Source: Candidatus Bathyarchaeota archaeon
GTDB taxonomy: Archaea > Thermoproteota > Bathyarchaeia > RBG-16-48-13 > JAGMEO01
DNA length: 62,838 nt
Direction of reading: 5' to 3'
Assembly: GCA_030602965.1 (NCBI GenBank)
Contig: JAUVYS010000001.1
Span: 1 to 62,838 of the forward strand
Both the position numbers and the translations under genes were made by a program. Each line of letters opens with the position of its first letter. Position 1 is the stretch's first letter. Under the pieces are notes generated by a model. The model saw nothing but the letters and a program-made list of their open reading frames with translations. It made no database searches and was not told the DNA's origin. This document shows positions 13,932 through 62,776 of this stretch, in pieces.

Positions 13932-14429
13932 CTAAATATCATCTCCAAATTTGTTCCGTTTTTTCCCAAACTGCTTTAATGCATCTCCTCTCTCCATAAT
14001 TCTACTACAGTAATGACATCTTAGTACAAGAGGGGTTTCTGTTTCAATGATAAACGTTGGTTGGATAGGTTCATGGCTATTAGAAACACACGCCGGATTT
14101 GTACATTTTAACATGCCGTGAATAACTTTTGGTAATTTTGCCTTCTGTTTCTCGATAACCGTGAAGTCTCGTATTATGTTAATTGTTGCATGTGGCGCTA
14201 TTAGAGCTATCTTGTTCACTTCGTCAGAATTTAGTTCTCTTCCTTCAATTTTCACAATGTCCTTTAATCCAATTTTACTACTAGGCACATTAATTGCAAT
14301 ACTTACTATGTGTCTGGTTTGACTTGTTATTCCTAAAATATTTAGAACCGTCAAACTGTTACCTGCACTTATATGATCAATAACGGTTCCTTCCCTAATC
14401 TTTTTTATTCGAAGTTCTTCATCAGACAA
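13932..14429 (-). CDS. pyrI: Aspartate carbamoyltransferase regulatory subunit
   Basis: [10 protein letters not shown] allosteric-domain motif and C-terminal zinc domain CTNPAC...CHYC. Confidence 0.9.
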
Positions 14430-14604
14430 AAGTTCACTACCAATTCATAAAATTCAATATTTTTAAAATAGTTTAATATCATCTGAAAAAGGTTTGGCTT
14501 TAATTTGAACCCTTTCTTACCAGAATGCATTGAAGGCAATTTGTCTTATAAATGAGCGAAAATAAACCATCTAAATATCATGTTCTCTAAAGGATTTGGA
14601 GTAA

Positions 14605-15522
14605 ATGCGTTTTGAAGGAAGAGACATTGTCTCCATCAAAGATTTTACTCGTGAAGAAGTTGAACATATCCTTAAAATTGCTAAACTGATGGAGCCTCTC
14701 ACCCGAAAAGGTTCAGACCTTTTAAACGGAAAAATATTGGCAAATTTATTCTTTGAACCTAGTACTAGGACAAAGCTTAGTTTCGAAGCTGCAATGCGTA
14801 GACTTGGCGGTGAATGTATAGGATTCTCTGACCCAACAACAAGCTCAATAAAAAAAGGAGAAAATTTAGCAGACACTATCCGTGTAGTTGAAAATTACTC
14901 AGACATAATAGTATTGAGACACCGCCTAGAGGGAGTTGCTAGAATGGCTGCTGAATTCTCAACTGTACCAATAATAAATGCTGGTTCAGGTAGCGAAGAA
15001 CACCCAACCCAAGCATTGCTTGACCTCTACACCATTAATAGAGAACTGGGAAGAATTGATGGGTTAAACATCGTTTTCGTTGGTGATCTAAGATATGGTA
15101 GAACGGTGCATTCTTTAGCATACGCTCTTGCTCTCTATGATGTTAATCTGTATCTAGTTTCTCCAGAGATTTTGCGGATGCGTAAAGAAGTTTTGAAAGA
15201 TGTCAAGAAGAGGATAAAAATCTTTGAAGTAGAAAACATTGAGAGCATTATTCACAAAGCAGATGTTCTTTATGTTACTAGAATTCAAAAGGAAAGGTTT
15301 CCTGATCCAGAGGAATATGAAAAAGTCAAAGGCTCTTATAGAATAACTTTAGATACTATCCGTCACGCAAAGAGCAGTCTTAATATATTGCATCCTCTCC
15401 CAAGAATCGACGAAATATCACCAGAAATAGATTCGACTCCATACGCTAAATATTTTAAGGAAGTTTGGTATGGTTTAGTGTTGAGAATGGGGTTGCTTGC
15501 TTTAGTTTTAGGTGCTGTTTAG
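14605..15522 (+). CDS. pyrB: Aspartate carbamoyltransferase catalytic subunit
   Basis: FFEPSTRT, HPTQ and HPLPR motifs. Confidence 0.95.
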   Translation: MRFEGRDIVSIKDFTREEVEHILKIAKLMEPLTRKGSDLLNGKILANLFFEPSTRTKLSFEAAMRRLGGECIGFSDPTTSSIKKGENLADTIRVVENYSDIIVLRHRLEGVARMAAEFSTVPIINAGSGSEEHPTQALLDLYTINRELGRIDGLNIVFVGDLRYGRTVHSLAYALALYDVNLYLVSPEILRMRKEVLKDVKKRIKIFEVENIESIIHKADVLYVTRIQKERFPDPEEYEKVKGSYRITLDTIRHAKSSLNILHPLPRIDEISPEIDSTPYAKYFKEVWYGLVLRMGLLALVLGAV

Positions 15523-38565: not shown

Positions 38566-38694
38566 GCCGGGGTGGCTGAGCGGTTTAAAGCGCTGGACAC
38601 AATTTAAAAGACCAGAATCGAAATCCAGTTCTCCCTTTGACTTAATAATTAAGAAGGACCGAGAGCATGGGTTCAAATCCCATCCCCGGCGCCA
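38566..38694 (+). tRNA. tRNA-Ser (anticodon CGA) with two introns (anticodon loop 32/33 and variable arm); CCA encoded
   Basis: Acceptor GCCGGGG/CCCCGGC, discriminator G, D-arm TGGCTGAGCGGTTTAAAGCGC. Anticodon stem CTGGA/TCCAG encloses C[19 nt]TCGAAA. Long variable region TCTC...GAGA has about 22 extra nt including CTTAAT/ATTAAG. T-arm ATGGG-TTCAAAT-CCCAT. Confidence 0.75.
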
Positions 38695-54577: not shown

Positions 54578-55123
54578 TTATGAAAGGTTTTCCCCTTGAA
54601 ATATGCCATTATAAGCCTTGTTGTTTGGATTAGATAGTCTTAAAAAAATGATCTGGGTAATTCTCGCATTTCTTTTAATTTTTAGTCCAAAAGGGTTGTG
54701 AACATTTAGCAACGCTTCACTCCGTCCTCTATATCCTGCATCCCAAATAGCAGTTTCTAGCGAAGCGCCACTTCGAAGTAAACTTGATCTTGGTCTTGCG
54801 AAAGCCACAAGGTCACACGGCATACTGATTACTTCGTTGAAAACAATTTTGTAAGCTCCTTTGATAACATGGATCCATCCTTCATTATCAAAAACCAATT
54901 TCTGTGTCTTTGAAACCACTCTTTTGTTGTTGGTTAAATCGAGTGCTCCTTCAGATACAAATTTTTCGATTTTTTTTACTGTGAGGTCGATGCCGTTCGT
55001 ACCAATTTGCTTTTTCTCATCGATAAGTCCATCAATCAAAGGAGGGTTTGTTCTTAATCTCTTCAAAAGATCTTTTCTTCCAAGAACGGTACCGCTCTGC
55101 TCAAACCTTTCTCTTCTTGCCAT
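54578..55123 (-). CDS. dCTP deaminase/dUTPase-family protein
   Basis: GTNGIDLTV and RPRSSLLRSGASLETAIWDAGYRGRSEALLNVHN...ARITQIIFLRL follow the archaeal dUTPase/dCTP deaminase pattern. The track ORF starts at GTG 55135; ATG 55123 is preferred. Confidence 0.8.
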   Translation of the reverse strand: MARRERFEQSGTVLGRKDLLKRLRTNPPLIDGLIDEKKQIGTNGIDLTVKKIEKFVSEGALDLTNNKRVVSKTQKLVFDNEGWIHVIKGAYKIVFNEVISMPCDLVAFARPRSSLLRSGASLETAIWDAGYRGRSEALLNVHNPFGLKIKRNARITQIIFLRLSNPNNKAYNGIFQGENLS

Positions 55124-55412
55124 GTTTGACTTCACAGTTTTTGGTTATTTTGGGACATATTCTTCCAATTTCTGAAGCATCCTTCTCTTTTCCTTTTTCT
55201 CTGTATTGGGCATTCTCTTTTCTTAGTATTAGAAACCAAATAGCTGATGCAATGATAGTCATAACGATGAATCCATAGAAAGCGATGTTTATGAGAAAGA
55301 TCCCTAAATAAACACTGCCAAGCTGTGTCAAGTTTATTAAAACACATCCATAAAGTAATAAGCCTATAGGAATTAACCATAGCCCAATTAAAATAATGTA
55401 AACAAGCCTCAT
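55101..55412 (-). CDS. Hypothetical small membrane protein
   Basis: Three hydrophobic helices followed by a Lys-rich tail. Overlaps the start of the dUTPase-family gene. Confidence 0.4.
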   Translation of the reverse strand: MRLVYIILIGLWLIPIGLLLYGCVLINLTQLGSVYLGIFLINIAFYGFIVMTIIASAIWFLILRKENAQYREKGKEKDASEIGRICPKITKNCEVKHGKKRKV

Positions 55413-55515
55413 GTCTTTTCAACCGAAATGTTACAGAGCACTCATTATGATCTAGCGTGTTTTGGTTTTTATTGTTTAGGCGGACTCGTATAATTGTCTT
55501 TGATTGTAGAAATAG

Positions 55516-55588
55516 AGCCGGGGACCGGATTTGAACCGGTGTGAAGCCGGTCTGCAGCCGACCGCCTCAACCACTCAGCCACCCCGGC
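55516..55588 (-). tRNA. tRNA-Cys (anticodon GCA), intron-less
   Basis: Minus strand GCCGGGG-TG-GCTGAGTGGTTGAGGC-GGTCGG CTGCAGA CCGGC-TTCAC-ACCGG TTCAAAT CCGGT-CCCCGGC-T. Discriminator U is typical of Cys. Confidence 0.9.
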
Positions 55589-55635: not shown

Positions 55636-55893
55636 TCATAATATAATTAACTCAGTTCCTAACGCTTCTCCAGGGAGACCTTTTCTAAACCTCGCTTTAA
55701 GAGTGCCTTTTCTACCGTGAATGCCAACAATTTTACCTATAAGACGATTGCCATTTGGACTGTTCCAAATTATTTTTCTTCCAATATACATTGCCGCCTT
55801 GTTTCTATCATTTGCACCTTCCACTTTTACCAAAGCATACTTATTTTGTTGAGTGCATTGTCCGCCTTGGTAGTTAACAAACAGTGCTCTCAT
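55636..55893 (-). CDS. rpl35ae: Ribosomal protein L35Ae (eL33)
   Basis: GKIVGIHGRKGTLKARFRKGLPGEALG is the L35Ae signature. Confidence 0.9.
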   Translation of the reverse strand: MRALFVNYQGGQCTQQNKYALVKVEGANDRNKAAMYIGRKIIWNSPNGNRLIGKIVGIHGRKGTLKARFRKGLPGEALGTELIIL

Positions 55894-55968: not shown

Positions 55969-56838
55969 TCACATCAACATTTGTTTTACTGCAAGTTCTC
56001 TTACTTTAGCAAGGTTTACATAATCGTCTCCACGTGAATCGATTGGAGTTTCCAATATGAGGGGCAGCTGTTTGATAGCTTCATTTTTAAGGATTATTTT
56101 AAACCCGTTCTCTCCTATGAAACCTAATCCTATATGTTCATGTCTATCGGTGTGGCTTCCCAGATCGCCTTTTGAGTCATTTAAATGAACGACTTTAAGA
56201 AGATTCAAGCCAATTACTTCATCCAAATGTTTTAGTGTATTAACAAGAGCTTTTCTCTCTCTAAGTTCATAGCCAGCAGAAAAAGCATGGCATGTATCAA
56301 AGCATATAGCAACTCTGCTTTTCTGTTCAACTCTGCTGATAATGTGTTGAAGATCTTCGAAGGCGCCACCTACACTGTTCTTTGTTCCTGCAGTGTTTTC
56401 TAACAAAATAATTACATCATTATCAATTGTTGAGAGAGCCTTATTACATGCTTCAGCCACTCGGTTATATCCAGCTTCTATTCCTGTTCCAAGATGACTT
56501 CCCAGATGAATTACACAGTAAGGAATGTTAAGTAATCCGCATCGATGAACTTCGGCAATAAGGCTGTCAACTGACTTCTTATAGATGTGTTTTTTTGGAG
56601 AGGCAAGATTTGGTAGATATGGCATATGCGCCACAACTGGTGCTATTTCTAAATCACTTAACTTTGAAGTGAACTTCTTTATGTTTTCTTCAGATAGATC
56701 TTTGAACGCCCATCCTCTTGGATTTCGAGTAAATATTTGAAAAGTGTCACATCCGCGTTCTAACGCTCTATCATTCGCAAGATCAATTGAACCTGAAATA
56801 GATACATGAACGCCAATTTTCAAGAAAGAAATCTCCAA
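55969..56838 (-). CDS. nfo: Endonuclease IV (deoxyribonuclease IV)
   Basis: TIM-barrel AP endonuclease motifs: HMPYLPNLASP, HLGSH, LENTAG, CFDTCHAFSAGY, HLNDSK...GSHTDRHEHIG. Confidence 0.9.
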   Translation of the reverse strand: MEISFLKIGVHVSISGSIDLANDRALERGCDTFQIFTRNPRGWAFKDLSEENIKKFTSKLSDLEIAPVVAHMPYLPNLASPKKHIYKKSVDSLIAEVHRCGLLNIPYCVIHLGSHLGTGIEAGYNRVAEACNKALSTIDNDVIILLENTAGTKNSVGGAFEDLQHIISRVEQKSRVAICFDTCHAFSAGYELRERKALVNTLKHLDEVIGLNLLKVVHLNDSKGDLGSHTDRHEHIGLGFIGENGFKIILKNEAIKQLPLILETPIDSRGDDYVNLAKVRELAVKQMLM

Positions 56839-56850
56839 AAATAAAAAAAA

Positions 56851-58314
56851 TCAGCTTTTCTTTATTTTCAAATCACTAAAGAAAAGGCGGGTCTCCCCCA
56901 TAGTTTTTTCTTTTAAAGAATTAATTCGTACTATCAAAGGAAAGTTGTTTAAAACCTTTCCAAGCATGAGACAGTAATGTGGTGGAAGCTGTCTAGCAAT
57001 TATGTTGACCGTCTCAACATCAATCATTGCAGCTCTTGAAACTATTTCTAGATCATGTTCGTTTGTGAAGTTAAAAAGAAATATGTTGTCTGCTTGTCTG
57101 TAAACACTTTTTCGAATGCTGTCCGGCTGGTTAGTAATGAATGTTGTGAACATTCCAAGATGTCGCATTCTTGTCACAATGTCATTCCAATATGTCTCCC
57201 GAAGATAGAGGTGTGCTTCCTCAGCGAAAAGGAAAACAGCCTTGAGACCCCAATTTTCAAGTAACTGAGATAATTTGCTTAACAAAAATTCTACAACGAT
57301 TTGCCGAAATTTTGAATTTATGTTTCGAAGATTGATGATGAGAGCACCACCTTTATCCATTTTGTCCATCACTGCTTCCAATACAGTGGCTTCTCCCCAA
57401 TCATCTGTAAAAAATTTTGTATTTATTAAACTCTCAAACCTTCTTAACAACGCATCTTGAATATAATTATTTGACACAGCGCGAATAGCTGAGTTCAAAT
57501 TATTAAGTGTGAGAGCACCCCGCTCTTTAAGATCCTTCCAAATCCTTCGAAACTCCCATGCAGATGTTGCTGGTAGATCCAAAATATTCTCCATTACTCT
57601 TAAGAAAACTCCAAGTCCAGCATACTGCAGAGTGACCTTAAAATCGCTGCCAGGAGTAAGTGAAATAAAACGGTCATAGAGAGAAGTCCTTCCTTCACTC
57701 TTTGTGTATCCAAGATTAATGTATTCTCCATTTATGTCAAAAACTATACAAATGCCACCTTTTGATACCAGCTGGATGAGAAGAAGCTTTGAAAGATGAG
57801 ACTTCCCTGTTCCTTTTTTACCTGTTATAATGTTGAGTTTTCCATCAATAGAATTTATGTTTATTGAGATACGTCCACCACCTTTCAAAGTACCAATGTC
57901 TAAACCATTTTGCGGCTCATTTTCTAGTAATTTAATTAAGTCTGCGTCTGGGAGCTTTCTAAGCCTTGATGTAGAGCGAGGTGGAATCCAAGACACATCG
58001 TTACTAACCTTTCCTTTATTTAACGCTCCTCGAATTTTACAAGTAAAAAGCTCAGCATCTTTGATAATATTCACGAAAGACTTCATTTCAAGCGGGTCTA
58101 AGTCTACACCCTCAAGTTTTTCTGTTGATGATGATCGGAGAATGTCTTCAAGAATTCCTGGAACATTTACGTAGCCTGAGTTTATAACTTGTATTATGAG
58201 GGATTTTTCTGAATTTACGTCCTCAACAAGCAGATAATCACCTCTATTAACATCTTCTGGAGGACAGCATATGACCTGAACAGTATTGGCATCAATCTTG
58301 TAGATTTGCATCAT
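56851..58314 (-). CDS. herA: HerA-like (DUF87/FtsK-HerA superfamily) ATPase
   Basis: N-terminal barrel-like domain, Walker A ITGKKGTGKSHL, Walker B VFLFAEEAH. 4-nt overlap with the nurA-like gene. Confidence 0.8.
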   Translation of the reverse strand: MMQIYKIDANTVQVICCPPEDVNRGDYLLVEDVNSEKSLIIQVINSGYVNVPGILEDILRSSSTEKLEGVDLDPLEMKSFVNIIKDAELFTCKIRGALNKGKVSNDVSWIPPRSTSRLRKLPDADLIKLLENEPQNGLDIGTLKGGGRISININSIDGKLNIITGKKGTGKSHLSKLLLIQLVSKGGICIVFDINGEYINLGYTKSEGRTSLYDRFISLTPGSDFKVTLQYAGLGVFLRVMENILDLPATSAWEFRRIWKDLKERGALTLNNLNSAIRAVSNNYIQDALLRRFESLINTKFFTDDWGEATVLEAVMDKMDKGGALIINLRNINSKFRQIVVEFLLSKLSQLLENWGLKAVFLFAEEAHLYLRETYWNDIVTRMRHLGMFTTFITNQPDSIRKSVYRQADNIFLFNFTNEHDLEIVSRAAMIDVETVNIIARQLPPHYCLMLGKVLNNFPLIVRINSLKEKTMGETRLFFSDLKIKKS

Positions 58315-59387
58315 GAAATCACCTTGTTATTGATCAACCCTCCCCCATATGGGCCAAAAAGAATCTGACGAATATTGGGTCGAAACACGGTTCTTATTCC
58401 AAAATTCTCAGCGATTAAGCGTTGCATCCCAATTATTTCGCTTGCAGAGAACCTTGACAATATGTGAGCAAGTCTTAATGTCTCAGGGTAACTTTCGACG
58501 ACAATATCATTGCTTATAAGCTTTTGAACTGCGTTAATTCCTGTCTCTCTTTCTATTTCGCGGTCAACATCTAGACGGAATGAAAATTGACTGGGAGTAA
58601 GCTTTGCAGCATACACTCTGCCAAAGAAACAGAGATAATTACCATACTGCCGGCGAATAATTTCATCTAAGTCAAGCAAACATGGAGCATTACGATTGTT
58701 AATTAAATCTGCGATTCTACGACCAAATATAGTAAATTTTGTTTTTTTTGAAAAAGCCAACACCACGTTTCCTCGGCTTCTCGCCATTCGGAGCATATCA
58801 TCTATTAAGGTAACAGGACTATCAATGGTCCATGCAGTAAGTGAACCATCCCAAAGTATAACGGAGTCTTCACAAGATTGTGAAAGTTGAGCTTGGAGCC
58901 ACCGTTCAAGAATATTTCGAATACGTCCAGGCATGCACCAAACATCAGGTGTTGGTGCTGCTCTACTAGCACCAAAGTACATTTGACGAAGTTTATTGTA
59001 AAGAAATTGTTTATTATTCTCTGTTACATGGAAGATGAATGGTCCGTAACGAGTATAATTATACTTAACCTCATCTTTCCAGACAATTGTACCTCGGACA
59101 GCACAAAGCAAACCATTGCTAGTTTCACCTAATTCAATACTAGATGTATCCAAACCAAAAATGTGTGCTTTCTCATCGATATATGCCAGTTTTATCATAT
59201 CCAAATTTTCTCCATCAAAATTGGCAATAAATTCATGTTCGTTAAGTTTGTTAAAGTCTCCAACGTAGTTTGTCGGCAAATCGATGTTTCTTAGACGATG
59301 ACTTGATTCAATAGTGTTCTTTAGAGAAGCATTGCCCAGTTCTACGAAGTTATATGGAGACTTCTGACTAAAATCAAGAACTTGCAT
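58311..59387 (-). CDS. nurA: NurA-like nuclease
   Basis: IFGLDTSSIE and VILWDGSL acidic motifs with NurA-like spacing. GGAGG lies 7 nt before the ATG. Confidence 0.7.
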   Translation of the reverse strand: MQVLDFSQKSPYNFVELGNASLKNTIESSHRLRNIDLPTNYVGDFNKLNEHEFIANFDGENLDMIKLAYIDEKAHIFGLDTSSIELGETSNGLLCAVRGTIVWKDEVKYNYTRYGPFIFHVTENNKQFLYNKLRQMYFGASRAAPTPDVWCMPGRIRNILERWLQAQLSQSCEDSVILWDGSLTAWTIDSPVTLIDDMLRMARSRGNVVLAFSKKTKFTIFGRRIADLINNRNAPCLLDLDEIIRRQYGNYLCFFGRVYAAKLTPSQFSFRLDVDREIERETGINAVQKLISNDIVVESYPETLRLAHILSRFSASEIIGMQRLIAENFGIRTVFRPNIRQILFGPYGGGLINNKVIS

Positions 59388-59475
59388 AACACTTCCTCCA
59401 GAAAATTTTCAACTCAGAAGTTAAGACTTCTTTTTTTAACCTAAGTAAACTAAATATAGAAACGCGTATAGTCTT

Positions 59476-59569
59476 TATAGTGGTGTAGTGGGTTAGCGTC
59501 AACCATAATTACCCCCTTTTTCGGTTTGTCGCCTAAAGTCCTTGGTGGGCTTTAGCACGACCCGCTATA
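59476..59569. ncRNA. Candidate structured RNA element (function and strand unknown)
   Basis: Locally GC-rich intergenic block. TATAGTGG (59476-59483) can pair with CCGCTATA (59562-59569). Internal hairpins GTCG-C-CTAAAG/CTTTAG-CA-CGAC (59528-59561) and GGTT/AACC (59491-59504). Confidence 0.25.
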
Positions 59570-59586
59570 CCTTCATATTTGAAGTT

Positions 59587-60036
59587 TCATTCTAGCGACT
59601 TTATGAGTATGTAACCATATCCCTTATTGGTATGAATTCGCCTGAGGGCACCCTTCTTTGTTAAATCTGTTAATCTTCCCTTAATTGTTCCAATTGGGTA
59701 ATGTATTGCATTAATTTTCATTACTTCTAATAGGTTACTAAGTGTTCGCGGTTTCTTTTTTCCCCATTTGGTAGCGAGGATCTTTGTAATGACTTCAGGA
59801 CATGACGCACCTGAGGAAACAGTGACTGTAGGTAATACGTCCGCTTCGACTGTTTTTTCTCCTAATTTATGCACATGTGATCTTGCTGTTGTAGAAGTTA
59901 AGGTGAAAGCTTCAGAAACTTTACTTACAATAATCGAAAGGTCATCTAACGCTTTCATTACTTCGTCTTGAGAACCACTTAATTCAATTTCTTTATCATT
60001 TATTCGAATTCTAAGTCTGAAGGGGTGAGAACTCAT
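59587..60036 (-). CDS. Paralog array member 4 (N-terminal beta-strand module + C-terminal winged helix)
   Basis: FRLRIRINDKEIELSGSQDEVMKAL; C-terminal TLSNLLEVMK...IGTIKGRLTDLTKKGALRRIHTNKGYGYILI. Confidence 0.6.
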   Translation of the reverse strand: MSSHPFRLRIRINDKEIELSGSQDEVMKALDDLSIIVSKVSEAFTLTSTTARSHVHKLGEKTVEADVLPTVTVSSGASCPEVITKILATKWGKKKPRTLSNLLEVMKINAIHYPIGTIKGRLTDLTKKGALRRIHTNKGYGYILIKSLE

Positions 60037-60039
60037 GTT

Positions 60040-60561
60040 TTATTCTCCTTTTTTATTTTTTAGTTGTTTTAGAATCTCTTCAGTCTTCTTGATTCCCCTG
60101 CTTGTAATTCGGTATTCACCTCTACCCACTCTATCGACGATACCGTCGTTGACCATCCACGCCAACTGATTGAACATTGTCTTCATTGCTTTTCCAGTGA
60201 TTTTTGATAGTTCATTGGCTGAAAGAGATTCTTTAGGTTGTTTTTGGAATTTGTTACTGATGTATGAGCCCATGAGTGCTAAGCAAACGGCGTCTTCTGC
60301 TGAAATATCCTTTGGACTTGTAAGTATGATGCCTTCTGGCGCGATCTGTAAAATTCCTTTTAAATCGTTTACAACCGCTCTTAAATCTGGAGTGAAAATT
60401 ATGTCTCGAAGTATTTCATATTCAGGATATATTTTGTTTAAAAAGTCAATGAAAACTGAAAACACTGCTTCAGGAGTTCCTTCGAAGTCAAGTTTGTTAT
60501 CACCAAATTCAACATGAACTTTCAAATTTTTTGATTCACTCATCTTATACTTCCTCTGCAA
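60040..60561 (-). CDS. Paralog array member 3
   Basis: LKVHVEFGDNKLDFEGTPEAVFSVFIDFLNKIYPEY, ILQIAPEGIILTSPKD, LSANELSKITGK...MVNDGIVDRVGRGEYRITSRG. ATG at 60543 would abut the stop of member 2. Confidence 0.65.
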   Translation of the reverse strand: MQRKYKMSESKNLKVHVEFGDNKLDFEGTPEAVFSVFIDFLNKIYPEYEILRDIIFTPDLRAVVNDLKGILQIAPEGIILTSPKDISAEDAVCLALMGSYISNKFQKQPKESLSANELSKITGKAMKTMFNQLAWMVNDGIVDRVGRGEYRITSRGIKKTEEILKQLKNKKGE

Positions 60562-61069
60562 TAGCTCTTATACGAGGTAAGTCTTTCTTTCGGAAGCCTT
60601 CGATACCATAGGTTGTAATTTTGTATTCTCCTCTTCCCACCCTTTCTACCCATCCAATGTCTACCATCTCACTTAATCTGGCTGCTACAGAACCTGGTTT
60701 TCCCCCAGTTGTTGTTATTATTTCAGCAATAGATAGGGAGTCCTTGCCAAGTCTTCCTAAACGAAAGCCAACTTTAGCTTTAAGTAGATGAAGAAGAATA
60801 TGTTCTCTTTCACCTGTTTGTTCCCTGGGGACCGTTATAACTAATCCCTCGGGAGTAATCAGTAATACCTTTTCTAATTCTTTCAATAAATCTTCAAAAC
60901 TCACGGTTAAAGTTAATTTTGATATCAAATTGTAATTTGGATAGATTTTAGTTAAAAAGTTAAGGAAACCACTAATCACTTCATCAACAGAACCGGAGAA
61001 TTTAGCTTCCAACTTATTAACTTTTACAGTGACCTCGAGCTTTTTCTCTATAGTGCGCAATTTTTTCAC
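60545..61069 (-). CDS. Paralog array member 2
   Basis: LEVTVKVNKLEAKFSGSVDEVISGFLNFLTKIYPNY, VLLITPEGLVITVPRE, LSIAEIITTTGGKPGSVAARLSEMVDIGWVERVGRGEYKITTYG. Confidence 0.65.
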   Translation of the reverse strand: MKKLRTIEKKLEVTVKVNKLEAKFSGSVDEVISGFLNFLTKIYPNYNLISKLTLTVSFEDLLKELEKVLLITPEGLVITVPREQTGEREHILLHLLKAKVGFRLGRLGKDSLSIAEIITTTGGKPGSVAARLSEMVDIGWVERVGRGEYKITTYGIEGFRKKDLPRIRAIAEEV

Positions 61070-61528
61070 CTATTTAGTAATTTTTGAAATTAGATCATCC
61101 ACCCATTTTTTTCCTAAGATGGTTAGTCTGTAGCCCCCGCCGTTTTTAAGAGCTAATCCTTCTCTTCTCATTTCGCTAAGCCTAGAACCAAAGCCAGTTG
61201 CGGGGCGCCCACTTAAACTCAATAAATGGCCAACTTCTTTAGGTTCAATAGAATTTGGATCGTAGGAATACAAAATTAGCCCAATAGCTTCTTTATTGGT
61301 TAATTTATCTTTTGGAACGATGATTAATGGTCCTTCAGGTGAAAATTCTATCAAACCTGAAAGCATCATTTTTGTTTCTGAAGGAACAATGTCTGGACCA
61401 ATAACTAATCCATCTATTGTTGCTAACCACTCTGGAAAAGTTTCGAGGGAAGATATGATCTCGTCTAGACTTTCACCTTCTATTTCCACATTCCCAAATG
61501 GTCTTTTTATTACAACTCTAATCTTCAA
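61070..61528 (-). CDS. Paralog array member 1
   Basis: MKIRVVIKRPFGNVEIEGESLDEIISSL, LIEFSPEGPLIIVPKD, VGHLLSLSGRPATGFGSRLSEMRREGLALKNGGGYRLTILG. TTG start. Confidence 0.65.
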   Translation of the reverse strand: MKIRVVIKRPFGNVEIEGESLDEIISSLETFPEWLATIDGLVIGPDIVPSETKMMLSGLIEFSPEGPLIIVPKDKLTNKEAIGLILYSYDPNSIEPKEVGHLLSLSGRPATGFGSRLSEMRREGLALKNGGGYRLTILGKKWVDDLISKITK

Positions 61529-61708
61529 TGGAAAATCGTTTAGAAATAATTTTAACGTAAATTTAAACTTTTCTACTACATGTTAACATAACGTAATATA
61601 ACGTATATATTTCAATGTGAGTTGCATGTAATTCGTATTCCTAAAAAATATAATAAAATATATATCCATCACAAGAATGTTTTAATTCTAGCTAAACTCG
61701 ATAATATA

Positions 61709-62776
61709 TTATTTGATAATGCCTTTGTTTTTTAAATATTTGATCATCTCTTTTTCTGTCTTGAAAATTTTCGTAGCATGATATTCAAAGAAAGGACTTA
61801 ATTTTTTAGGGAAGTAAGCAAAGACATTTTTATTGTTAGTGAAGCCATAAACCATCTCGCTCAAGACACCAGGAGATAAAACTGGTACGGGATAGTAGAC
61901 TATTATCATGTCGCTTTGAGAAATAAGTTTGTAATCTCTATCAACAGTTTGGTCAATAATATCTTCTCTTGCTTCTTCAATTTCGCTAATATTGATTAAT
62001 CCTTGTTTACCATCTACTTTAAATTTTAGTTTATCTTTGCCTTTTCTCTTTGCTGCTTCAGCAAATCCAATCAAATCCATTTCTTCAATATCCTCAGGAT
62101 CGAAGATAATAAGATCACGTTTTCTAAGCTCATCTCGAAATCTATTCTTTGCTTTCATCTTCGATGGATCTTGCTTCATATAAGTCATAGGGTAGCTGAT
62201 GTAAGCTTTCTTAATATTTAGGTCAAATAAAAGATTGATAATTTCTTCTGGGGGATCCTTATTTGTAATGACATAATTTTTCACTCCTTGATAATTGGCA
62301 ATCATATTGGATATGAAAAGCTCCTCGTCTCGCCATACTAGGAGTTCTTTTAAACTAAATTTTCCTTTCCATCCAGGTTGTCTTTCAAGCCTAATCTTAA
62401 TGGTTTGAATATCATCAATTATCGTTAAAAACACATCTGGTGATAATTGATTAAGATAGTGAAAATCGAAAGCAGGTATGAGATTTTTTTTCCATCTAAA
62501 ACAGGCGTGGGTGCTTATTATCAGGTTTTCTTGGCTTTTTGCTTCTGTAATAATTTGTTCAAACACTGTGGCACGAAGATAGTTAAGAGTAGAAGATGAC
62601 ATATCTAAAATTTTGTGTTCAGGTATTTCTCTACCAAGTCTCTTTGCTGTTTCAAACATCATAGAACCTACATGAAGAACTTTCGTAGGTTTACTTGCTT
62701 TAGTGATAAGCTCTGCAAGGTTCTCTAAATATTCGTTCCTCTTGCTTCCACTAATTCCAGTCCCAACTATGATCAT
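61709..62776 (-). CDS. Fusion protein: archaeal adenylate-kinase (AdkA)-like domain with deviant P-loop + nucleoside 2-deoxyribosyltransferase-like C-terminal domain
   Basis: N-half: IVGTGISGSKR, VLHVGSMMFETAKRLG, LIISTHACFRWKKNLIPAF, SPDVFLTIIDD follow the AdkA layout. C-half: KKAYISYPMT and SDMIIVYYPVPVLSPGVLSEMVYGF resemble the YLAGP / S.G...E.G motifs of NDT/Rcl-like domains. Confidence 0.6.
   Translation of the reverse strand: MIIVGTGISGSKRNEYLENLAELITKASKPTKVLHVGSMMFETAKRLGREIPEHKILDMSSSTLNYLRATVFEQIITEAKSQENLIISTHACFRWKKNLIPAFDFHYLNQLSPDVFLTIIDDIQTIKIRLERQPGWKGKFSLKELLVWRDEELFISNMIANYQGVKNYVITNKDPPEEIINLLFDLNIKKAYISYPMTYMKQDPSKMKAKNRFRDELRKRDLIIFDPEDIEEMDLIGFAEAAKRKGKDKLKFKVDGKQGLINISEIEEAREDIIDQTVDRDYKLISQSDMIIVYYPVPVLSPGVLSEMVYGFTNNKNVFAYFPKKLSPFFEYHATKIFKTEKEMIKYLKNKGIIK

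Follow-up and report, generated by a model that had tools for sequence, protein, structure and literature searches.

The hexameric ATPase HerA passes DNA to a dimer of the nuclease NurA, which degrades it 5′→3′ and leaves 3′ tails for RadA. The control of homologous recombination in archaea is, to our knowledge, poorly understood: there is no LexA/SOS, and the few known regulators, Orc1-2, TFB3 and Csa3a, all belong to Sulfolobales. In Sulfolobus islandicus, Csa3a, a protein with a CARF domain and a winged helix-turn-helix (wHTH) domain, binds specific motifs in the nurA-herA promoters and activates them (PMC5587795). Here we analyzed a nurA-herA pair on the minus strand of a 62,838-nucleotide (nt) stretch of DNA from a Candidatus Bathyarchaeota archaeon (contig JAUVYS010000001.1, positions 1 to 62,838; hereafter the window), where the pair is preceded by an array of four small genes (par1 to par4) and a spacer with a foldable element. 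The Bathyarchaeia, an archaeal class without cultured members, are very abundant in sediments.

We consider it probable, with real room for doubt, that the locus is a housekeeping operon for end resection, controlled by winged-helix proteins specific to its lineage and by an antisense small RNA (sRNA); these roles of the paralogs and the RNA are suggested by position, fold, motifs and covariation. The parts of the locus, in window coordinates, are:

61553-61606: array promoter and candidate operator region, with boxes around a TATA-like TTTAAAT
61070-61528, minus strand: par1, predicted small winged-helix protein, orthogroup C
60545-61069, minus strand: par2, predicted small winged-helix protein, orthogroup B
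60040-60561, minus strand: par3, predicted small winged-helix protein, second copy of orthogroup B
59587-60036, minus strand: par4, predicted small winged-helix protein, orthogroup D, sister to the A group
59482-59571, plus strand: candidate small RNA gene of ~90 nt, antisense to the cluster, in the par4-nurA spacer
58311-59387, minus strand: NurA-type nuclease with a PF09376 match, overlapping herA by 4 nt
56851-58314, minus strand: HerA-type hexameric ATPase/translocase of the 'type 1' Bathyarchaeia lineage, with a DUF87 match

The conserved unit around nurA-herA

The original prediction had treated eight minus-strand genes, from an AdkA-like/NDT-like fusion through the four paralogs, nurA and herA to endonuclease IV (nfo), as a candidate for one undescribed module. 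In a listing of the open reading frames (ORFs) of the window, all eight lie exactly where it had placed them, with junctions of +180, 0, −17, +3, +199, −4 and +12 nt in that order, as claimed, and profile searches upheld its domain calls for the fusion, NurA, HerA and endonuclease IV. Conservation was assessed in a neighborhood survey of 80 GTDB species loci around the HerA ortholog and six exact look-up loci, in which ORFs were called and profile searches iterated (WIN is the window's own locus and L-numbers are surveyed relatives). In 85 of the 87 Bathyarchaeia loci, nurA stands next to herA, and the pair was found in 324 confirmed stretches in species genomes. The small proteins sort into four orthogroups, A to D, with the order C-B-B-D in the window (par1 to par4), and an A-type or D-type gene adjoins nurA in 81 loci. 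The four small genes recur together with nurA-herA in L002/L003, L007-L010, L101 and L103, while the eight-gene order as a whole recurs at 70% HerA identity; the arrangement thus goes beyond a chance grouping. Probes begun from the paralogs rather than from HerA landed beside a NurA-HerA pair in four of four cases, so the expected recurrence of the paralog array beside nurA-herA was borne out from both directions. Three architectures were seen:

39 loci: <A >nurA >herA
16 loci, plus 2 with mre11-rad50 after herA: >D >C >B <A >nurA >herA
the window's clade: >C >B >B >D >nurA >herA

WIN, L002 and L003 are the only loci in which the fusion accompanies the array, nfo adjoins herA only in WIN and its closest relatives (L001-L003), and flanking genes outside the unit are not conserved among the loci compared. 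The eight genes therefore do not form one module, because the fusion and nfo accompany the core in few loci and the fusion occurs elsewhere in unrelated contexts. The conserved core is nurA-herA, accompanied by the winged-helix family. The absence of mre11-rad50, taken in the original prediction as the mark of a different system, also loses that meaning. A profile search found neither mre11 nor rad50 in the 62.8-kb window, and in eight surveyed Bathyarchaeia loci the same herA ortholog is followed, 2-6 kb past its start, by Mre11-Rad50 genes, which match archaeal Mre11 (E = 5e-35) and Rad50 (E = 3e-58) best. Two typical <A >nurA >herA loci (L031 and L078) stand on contigs titled Limnocylindrales bacterium and Krumholzibacteriaceae bacterium; these are probably mis-binned archaeal contigs in bacterial metagenome-assembled genomes (MAGs).

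Solved NurA proteins have an RNase H-like fold; the window NurA is assigned from its sequence, which scores 26.7 bits against PF09376 (gathering score 21) and gave no significant match in sequence searches of solved structures. Residues D80, E161, D180, K214 and Y300 are each conserved in at least 93% of 86 orthologs. They follow the same order as the catalytic D58/E116/D133 plus K202/Y298 of Sulfolobus solfataricus NurA (PMC3326311), a match by order and spacing, not by structural superposition. HerA matches DUF87 (E = 2.3e-12; 47.9 bits against a gathering score of 23.2), and its Walker A (GKKGTGKS) and Walker B (EEAH) motifs are invariant in 12 orthologs. Its best solved relative is S. solfataricus HerA (4D2I), aligned nearly end to end over residues 104-474 (E = 3.2e-10); a structure of the SIR2-HerA type matches more weakly (E = 2e-5). 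HerA has 3,385 homologs (E ≤ 1e-5), of which the 120 best listed share more than 50% identity, and among the matches listed those with a taxon name are all Bathyarchaeota/Bathyarchaeia MAGs. The pair is best read as a housekeeping DNA double-strand-break end-resection operon of a Bathyarchaeia archaeon, with a predicted ATP-dependent activity.

Winged-helix proteins, candidate operators and a candidate spacer RNA

The four small proteins had been described as mutually similar. By BLAST, this holds for par1 to par3 (par2-par3, E = 3e-29 and 34% identity; par1-par3, E = 1.5e-8; par1-par2, E = 2e-4), while the similarity of par4 is only marginal (par4-par2, E = 0.04). Profile comparison with hhalign gave probabilities of 98% for A versus D, 99% for B versus C and 76-89% for B or C versus D. 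Scored against hidden Markov models of the orthogroups, par1 reaches 183 bits for C, par2 and par3 reach 210 and 206 bits for B, and par4 reaches 184 bits for D compared to 35 bits for A. No Pfam or NCBIfam model matches the four proteins above threshold, the best Pfam scores being weak wHTH matches of 13-20 bits; A-type proteins show weak BlaI/MecI Pfam matches (E = 8e-4). The paralog profiles gave no significant match in sequence searches of solved structures, and in PADLOC par3 matches only the wHTH ends of Csa3 and CARF proteins.

AlphaFold2 models of par2 and par4 comprise an N-terminal β-hairpin and helix, a linker and a C-terminal winged helix. The par2 model (predicted local distance difference test (pLDDT) score of 84) adds a second β-hairpin before the wHTH and ends in a long helix, and the par4 model has a pLDDT of 77, with the wHTH part above 90. 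Foldseek matched par2 best to AspA (4rs8, E = 4e-4), followed by MarR and PadR, and par4 to MecI, Fur and PadR, with a probability of 1.0 for these generic wHTH regulators. The small proteins are predicted from these models to carry the wHTH fold.

The protein database holds ~53 orthologs of par1, all 'hypothetical' and from Bathyarchaeota where named. An exhaustive profile search of 1.84 billion proteins returned 286 representatives of the D/A subfamily, and its named matches are all Bathyarchaeota 'hypothetical protein' entries. Judging from named matches and GTDB titles, the winged-helix family appears to be restricted to Bathyarchaeia, and a literature search found no publication describing it. 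The view that the paralogs fall outside known curated families was thus borne out, both by the Pfam/NCBIfam thresholds and by the literature search. A well-characterized unrelated family, an outcome that had been considered for every component, was found for the fusion, endonuclease IV, NurA and HerA, and not for the paralogs.

Two kinds of palindromic site accompany these genes. In most of 41 aligned loci, the A gene diverges from nurA across a strongly conserved spacer of 89-90 nt, which contains TATTG repeats, then the perfect palindrome TTGTGCAT-N6-ATGCACAA and then a TATA-like ACACTTAAATA ~25 nt ahead of the nurA start, a distance that fits a leaderless layout of nurA. Twenty-six loci have the strict palindrome, each as a single copy in the A-nurA spacer, and it is found nowhere else in 1.48 Mb; neither the palindrome nor an A-type gene was found in the window. 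C-first arrays all carry three to four palindromic TTAACGTTAA-type boxes upstream, phased ~11 bp apart around a B recognition element (BRE) and TATA box, and such boxes stand at the array promoters of L007-L010, L100, L102, L103 and the window. Box density is 11.1 per kb within 160 nt upstream of the arrays compared to 0.04 per kb elsewhere, a ~280-fold enrichment. In the window, palindromic boxes TTACGTTA (61589-61596 and 61553-61560) and degenerate copies (~61599-61606 and 61579-61587) flank the TATA-like TTTAAAT (61561-61567), 33 nt ahead of the par1 start. The phasing of TTAACGTTAA boxes around the array's own TATA suggests autoregulation. D-first arrays (for example, L054, L016, L020 and L067) have another conserved block at about −120 to −20 of the D start, of the form ...GCATCTTAATATTTAATACAATATT...CGACATATATCA...ACGTAAATTCTAAAAGGAG, with an AATATTG/CAATATT inverted repeat and an ACGTAA half-box, which may be a third operator type.

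The GC-rich foldable element noted in the par4-nurA spacer proved real and conserved, on the strand opposite to the gene strand that had been implied. On the plus strand, its minimum free energy (MFE) is −38.4 kcal/mol (z = −4.25; none of 200 shuffles as stable), with an RNAalifold energy of −34.9, compared to an MFE of −26.5 kcal/mol (z = −1.93) and −25.7 on the gene strand. The element consists of a 10-bp closing stem, a conserved single-stranded segment of ~36 nt with a short 2-bp hairpin and the motifs GGGKWAKCRTYAA and CCCCC/CCUCC, and a hairpin of 12-13 bp. In an alignment of eight sequences, 93.7% of cells are paired compared to ~40% in slid controls, 13 pairs change on both sides, and none of 500 shuffles reached the observed pairing or covariation score. 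A conserved BRE/TATA (GTAAAC-TAAATATA, 59445-59458) lies 24 nt upstream of the RNA 5′ end, and a hairpin followed by TT (59571-59586) lies 3′ of the RNA; several relatives have a U-run within this hairpin. An RNA on the gene strand was rejected in favor of the plus strand on the two z values, the upstream BRE/TATA and the closing helix, which is paired in all eight sequences through G·U pairs. Two other identities were rejected. No Rfam 15 family matched either strand of 59300-59700 at E ≤ 1, apart from a chance snoRNA outside the element, and ARAGORN, with introns allowed, reported no tRNA.

The RNA is present in WIN, L001, L002, L007-L009, L100, L101 and L103, always between D and nurA, and a covariance model recovers it in every co-directional D-to-nurA junction except that of L010. 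The same model, even with filters off, did not find it in five sampled <A >nurA loci. A pattern scan of metagenomes gave 11 matches, of which seven are due to chance and four are real, with covariance model scores equal to those of the copies already known from L002 and L007-L009. The element is a candidate ~90-nt sRNA antisense to the cluster. Because it is confined to D-to-nurA junctions, the site upstream of nurA that holds the A gene in some clades is taken, in the same orientation, by the sRNA gene in others.

The same surroundings are found at a second NurA-HerA lineage (type 2; L100 10540-13328 and L102 5573-8422), which has a HerA of 516-547 and a NurA of 393-411 amino acids. The type-2 NurA matches Pfam more strongly than that of the window (E = 2e-14), and no significant BLAST similarity was found between the type-2 pair and the window's pair. 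In L100, the type-2 pair has beside it both the spacer RNA and a C-B-B-D array with 43-62% identity to that of the window. At L102, a divergent A gene borders the pair, and the operator-TATA cassette recurs upstream of nurA as ATTGCGCAT-TTTCA-ATGCACAA-CAACATTTATATA. That the cassette was retained while the enzyme genes were exchanged speaks for functional coupling and not for inherited synteny alone. Two further genes were seen at L100. A 263-amino-acid SIR2-family gene (14188-14979), which recalls SIR2-HerA defense pairs though it is not adjacent to herA, lies ~0.9 kb downstream of the type-2 herA with an opposite-strand RraA-like gene between them, and an OrfB_IS605/Cas12f-like TnpB gene (797-2029) lies ~6.5 kb upstream of the type-2 locus.

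Weighing the possible roles of the winged-helix proteins

As an end-resection operon under winged-helix and sRNA control, the locus might work as follows. The winged-helix members would be sequence-specific transcription regulators of the nurA-herA operon and of themselves. In most Bathyarchaeia, in which an A-type gene is divergent from nurA, the A protein would bind its palindrome directly beside the nurA BRE/TATA. The window's clade lacks both this gene and its operator, and here the C-B-B-D operon would regulate itself via the phased boxes. The window's nurA-herA could then be expressed by read-through from the array promoter, from a weak spacer promoter or from both, and the antisense sRNA could modulate read-through or translation.

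Several points weigh against this proposal. The role given to the paralogs is read from position, fold and conserved DNA motifs. Four paralogs in a tight, partly overlapping operon exceed the usual need of a two-gene operon, and such an arrangement fits a hetero-oligomeric complex too. Only about one-third of the species have the D-C-B trio within 10 kb of herA, and it is sometimes 2-9 kb from herA with other genes between. Both HerA and NurA score far under the NCBIfam equivalog cut-offs (HerA, 24.7 bits against 800 for HerA_Thermprot and 24.3 against 970 for helicase_HerA), and the pair is therefore regarded as a divergent lineage of a known system. By eye, no conserved operator was seen directly upstream of nurA in the window's clade, and the regulation of nurA-herA in this clade is the weakest link of the proposal.

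Tentatively, and with more doubt than confidence, the winged-helix array A-D and the antisense sRNA can also be viewed as a lineage-specific layer devoted to controlling or targeting double-strand-break resection in Bathyarchaeia, modular enough to have been kept through the exchange of the enzyme pair. Such a layer could be a DNA-damage-responsive switch or could supply new DNA-recognition subunits for HerA-NurA, and the site upstream of nurA would be filled by either of two alternatives, regulator A or the sRNA.

We regard it as unlikely, if still worth serious attention, that the winged-helix proteins form a DNA-binding accessory hetero-oligomer that loads or recruits HerA-NurA to DNA ends or structures, with autoregulation secondary. 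The fixed order of the four orthogroups and their junctions of 0 to −17 nt suggest co-translation and a fixed stoichiometry, the extra N-terminal β-hairpin/helix domain could mediate hetero-oligomerization, the association outlives the replacement of the NurA-HerA lineage, and par2 is structurally most similar to AspA, which forms a polymer coat on DNA and is no simple repressor. However, specific palindromic sites placed exactly at promoters are a hallmark of regulators, the A gene has the divergent layout usual for a local regulator, and the D-C-B trio is often several kb away or outside the 10-kb neighborhood.

There is a slim chance that the small genes stay beside nurA-herA as inherited synteny without function and that their products regulate something else. 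The surveyed genomes all belong to one class, in which shared ancestry could suffice, and the distance between the trio and herA varies. Against this, the linkage persists through at least three rearranged architectures and through the exchange of the NurA-HerA lineage, the A operator is set on the nurA TATA box in both lineages, and genes flanking the unit have not been retained with it.

An eight-gene defense or conflict module, in which HerA-NurA would be the effector, the fusion would modify or deplete nucleotides and the wHTH proteins would act as sensors, is highly improbable. It could appeal to the best NCBIfam and PADLOC matches of HerA, which include anti-phage HerA and mad8 (all far below NCBIfam cut-offs), to weak PADLOC matches of par2 and par3 to AbiEi and Csa3 wHTH models and to the general occurrence of NDT-like and kinase domains in conflict systems. 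The neighborhood survey largely refuted it: the fusion is conserved over Thermoproteota in unrelated contexts and joins the array in three loci only, the pair is widespread and conserved class-wide, with housekeeping neighbors in the window and its closest relatives and mre11-rad50 linkage in eight loci, the nearest solved relative of HerA is a repair HerA (4D2I) and not the SIR2-HerA type, no adjacent SIR2/DUF4297 partner or mobile-element signature was found in the cluster region, and PADLOC reported generic HerA and wHTH domain matches and no system, which leaves the nucleotide-based conflict proposed for the cluster without footing.

Neighboring genes and comparison with known systems

Two of the eight genes lie outside the conserved unit:

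61709-62776, minus strand: AdkA-like P-loop/NDT-like fusion, a neighbor in a separate transcription unit
55969-56838, minus strand: endonuclease IV (Nfo) with a TIGR00587 match, starting 12 nt past herA

The fusion has an AAA_17/AdkA-like Pfam match (E = 2.6e-10) and matches archaeal adenylate kinase structures (E = 1e-5), at 35.8 bits against an AdkA equivalog cut-off of 155. Its NDT match (PF05014, E = 0.002) is below threshold, with 18.7 bits against a gathering score of 28.8; some orthologs carry a precomputed PF05014 match. The P-loop is atypical, with a family consensus of GISGSGR in place of the canonical GxxxxGK[ST] and a Walker lysine that is not conserved. The family also has an invariant S-P-G-x-x-S-E motif, which we take to resemble the catalytic motif of the NDT superfamily. 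Full-length members are spread over Thermoproteota at 43-53% identity, beside a T2SSE ATPase and DUF711 in Thermofilum pendens and beside ribonucleotide reductases elsewhere. In L088, the fusion adjoins two ribonucleotide reductase genes, neighbors that hint at nucleotide metabolism. The fusion represents an uncharacterized Thermoproteota family conserved over its full length (the window, L087 and L088).

Endonuclease IV scores 281.4 bits against TIGR00587 (cut-off 129.65; E = 7e-84) and matches PF01261 (AP_endonuc_2) at E = 3.6e-48. It is probably co-transcribed with herA in the window, yet it is not a conserved partner. Neither the fusion (nucleotide metabolism) nor endonuclease IV (base-excision repair) is a component of the unit; both are neighbors. 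Past the downstream end of nfo, the same strand encodes tRNA-Cys (55515-55588), ribosomal protein L35Ae (55636-55893) and an archaeal dUTPase (54578-55135), a housekeeping context; in L002, the dUTPase is ~6 kb downstream, beside UvrD-like and Lhr-like helicases. The window also holds an archaeal signal recognition particle RNA (1-308) and intron-bearing tRNAs besides L35Ae, which together mark the DNA as archaeal. Rfam reports a 126-nt tRNA at 38566-38691, presumably intron-containing, that ARAGORN did not report.

The locus offers a concrete regulatory cassette for nurA-herA, made up of an uncharacterized four-member winged-helix family, two well-defined candidate operators and a new candidate small RNA, and it corrects an attractive defense-module reading in which the kinase/NDT-like fusion and endonuclease IV were parts. 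Retention of the cassette over two NurA-HerA lineages without detectable similarity makes it a natural experiment in regulator-enzyme coupling.

Compared to the anti-phage HerA systems (SIR2-HerA and DUF4297-HerA; PMC11472057), the window shares a HerA-superfamily ATPase, for which HerA_antiphage is the top NCBIfam match (E = 7.8e-13). It differs in its partner, which is NurA and not SIR2 or DUF4297, in a score of 47.8 bits against an 800-bit cut-off and in a housekeeping-like distribution. The C-terminal 70-90 residues of the paralogs are modeled with the same fold as the BlaI/MecI, PadR and MarR repressors and AspA of pNOB8 (4rs8 and 5k5q). The candidate sites resemble those of BlaI/MecI, PadR and MarR in that palindromic or phased sites overlap the promoter and regulator and target are divergent. 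Unlike BlaI/MecI, the paralogs have a reversed domain order with the wHTH at the C terminus; they also score below every Pfam gathering score and are four co-operonic proteins instead of one homodimeric regulator.

With the archaeal HerA-NurA complex (Sulfolobus, Pyrococcus and Thermococcus; PMC3326311 and PMC5715905), the locus shares the overlapping nurA-herA pair, the NurA D/E/D and K/Y residues, a HerA closest to the Sulfolobus protein 4D2I and, in some relatives, mre11-rad50 after herA. The window lineage is, however, very divergent (24-48 bits against NCBIfam cut-offs of 800-970), has no mre11-rad50 within its 62.8 kb and carries a wHTH array and an antisense RNA upstream that are undescribed for the classical operon. 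A precedent in regulation is Csa3a, also a winged-helix protein at nurA-herA promoters, although DNA binding by the paralogs is predicted. The paralogs have an N-terminal small β-hairpin/helix domain in place of CARF, and their genes, four in number, stand beside nurA-herA and not in a CRISPR locus.

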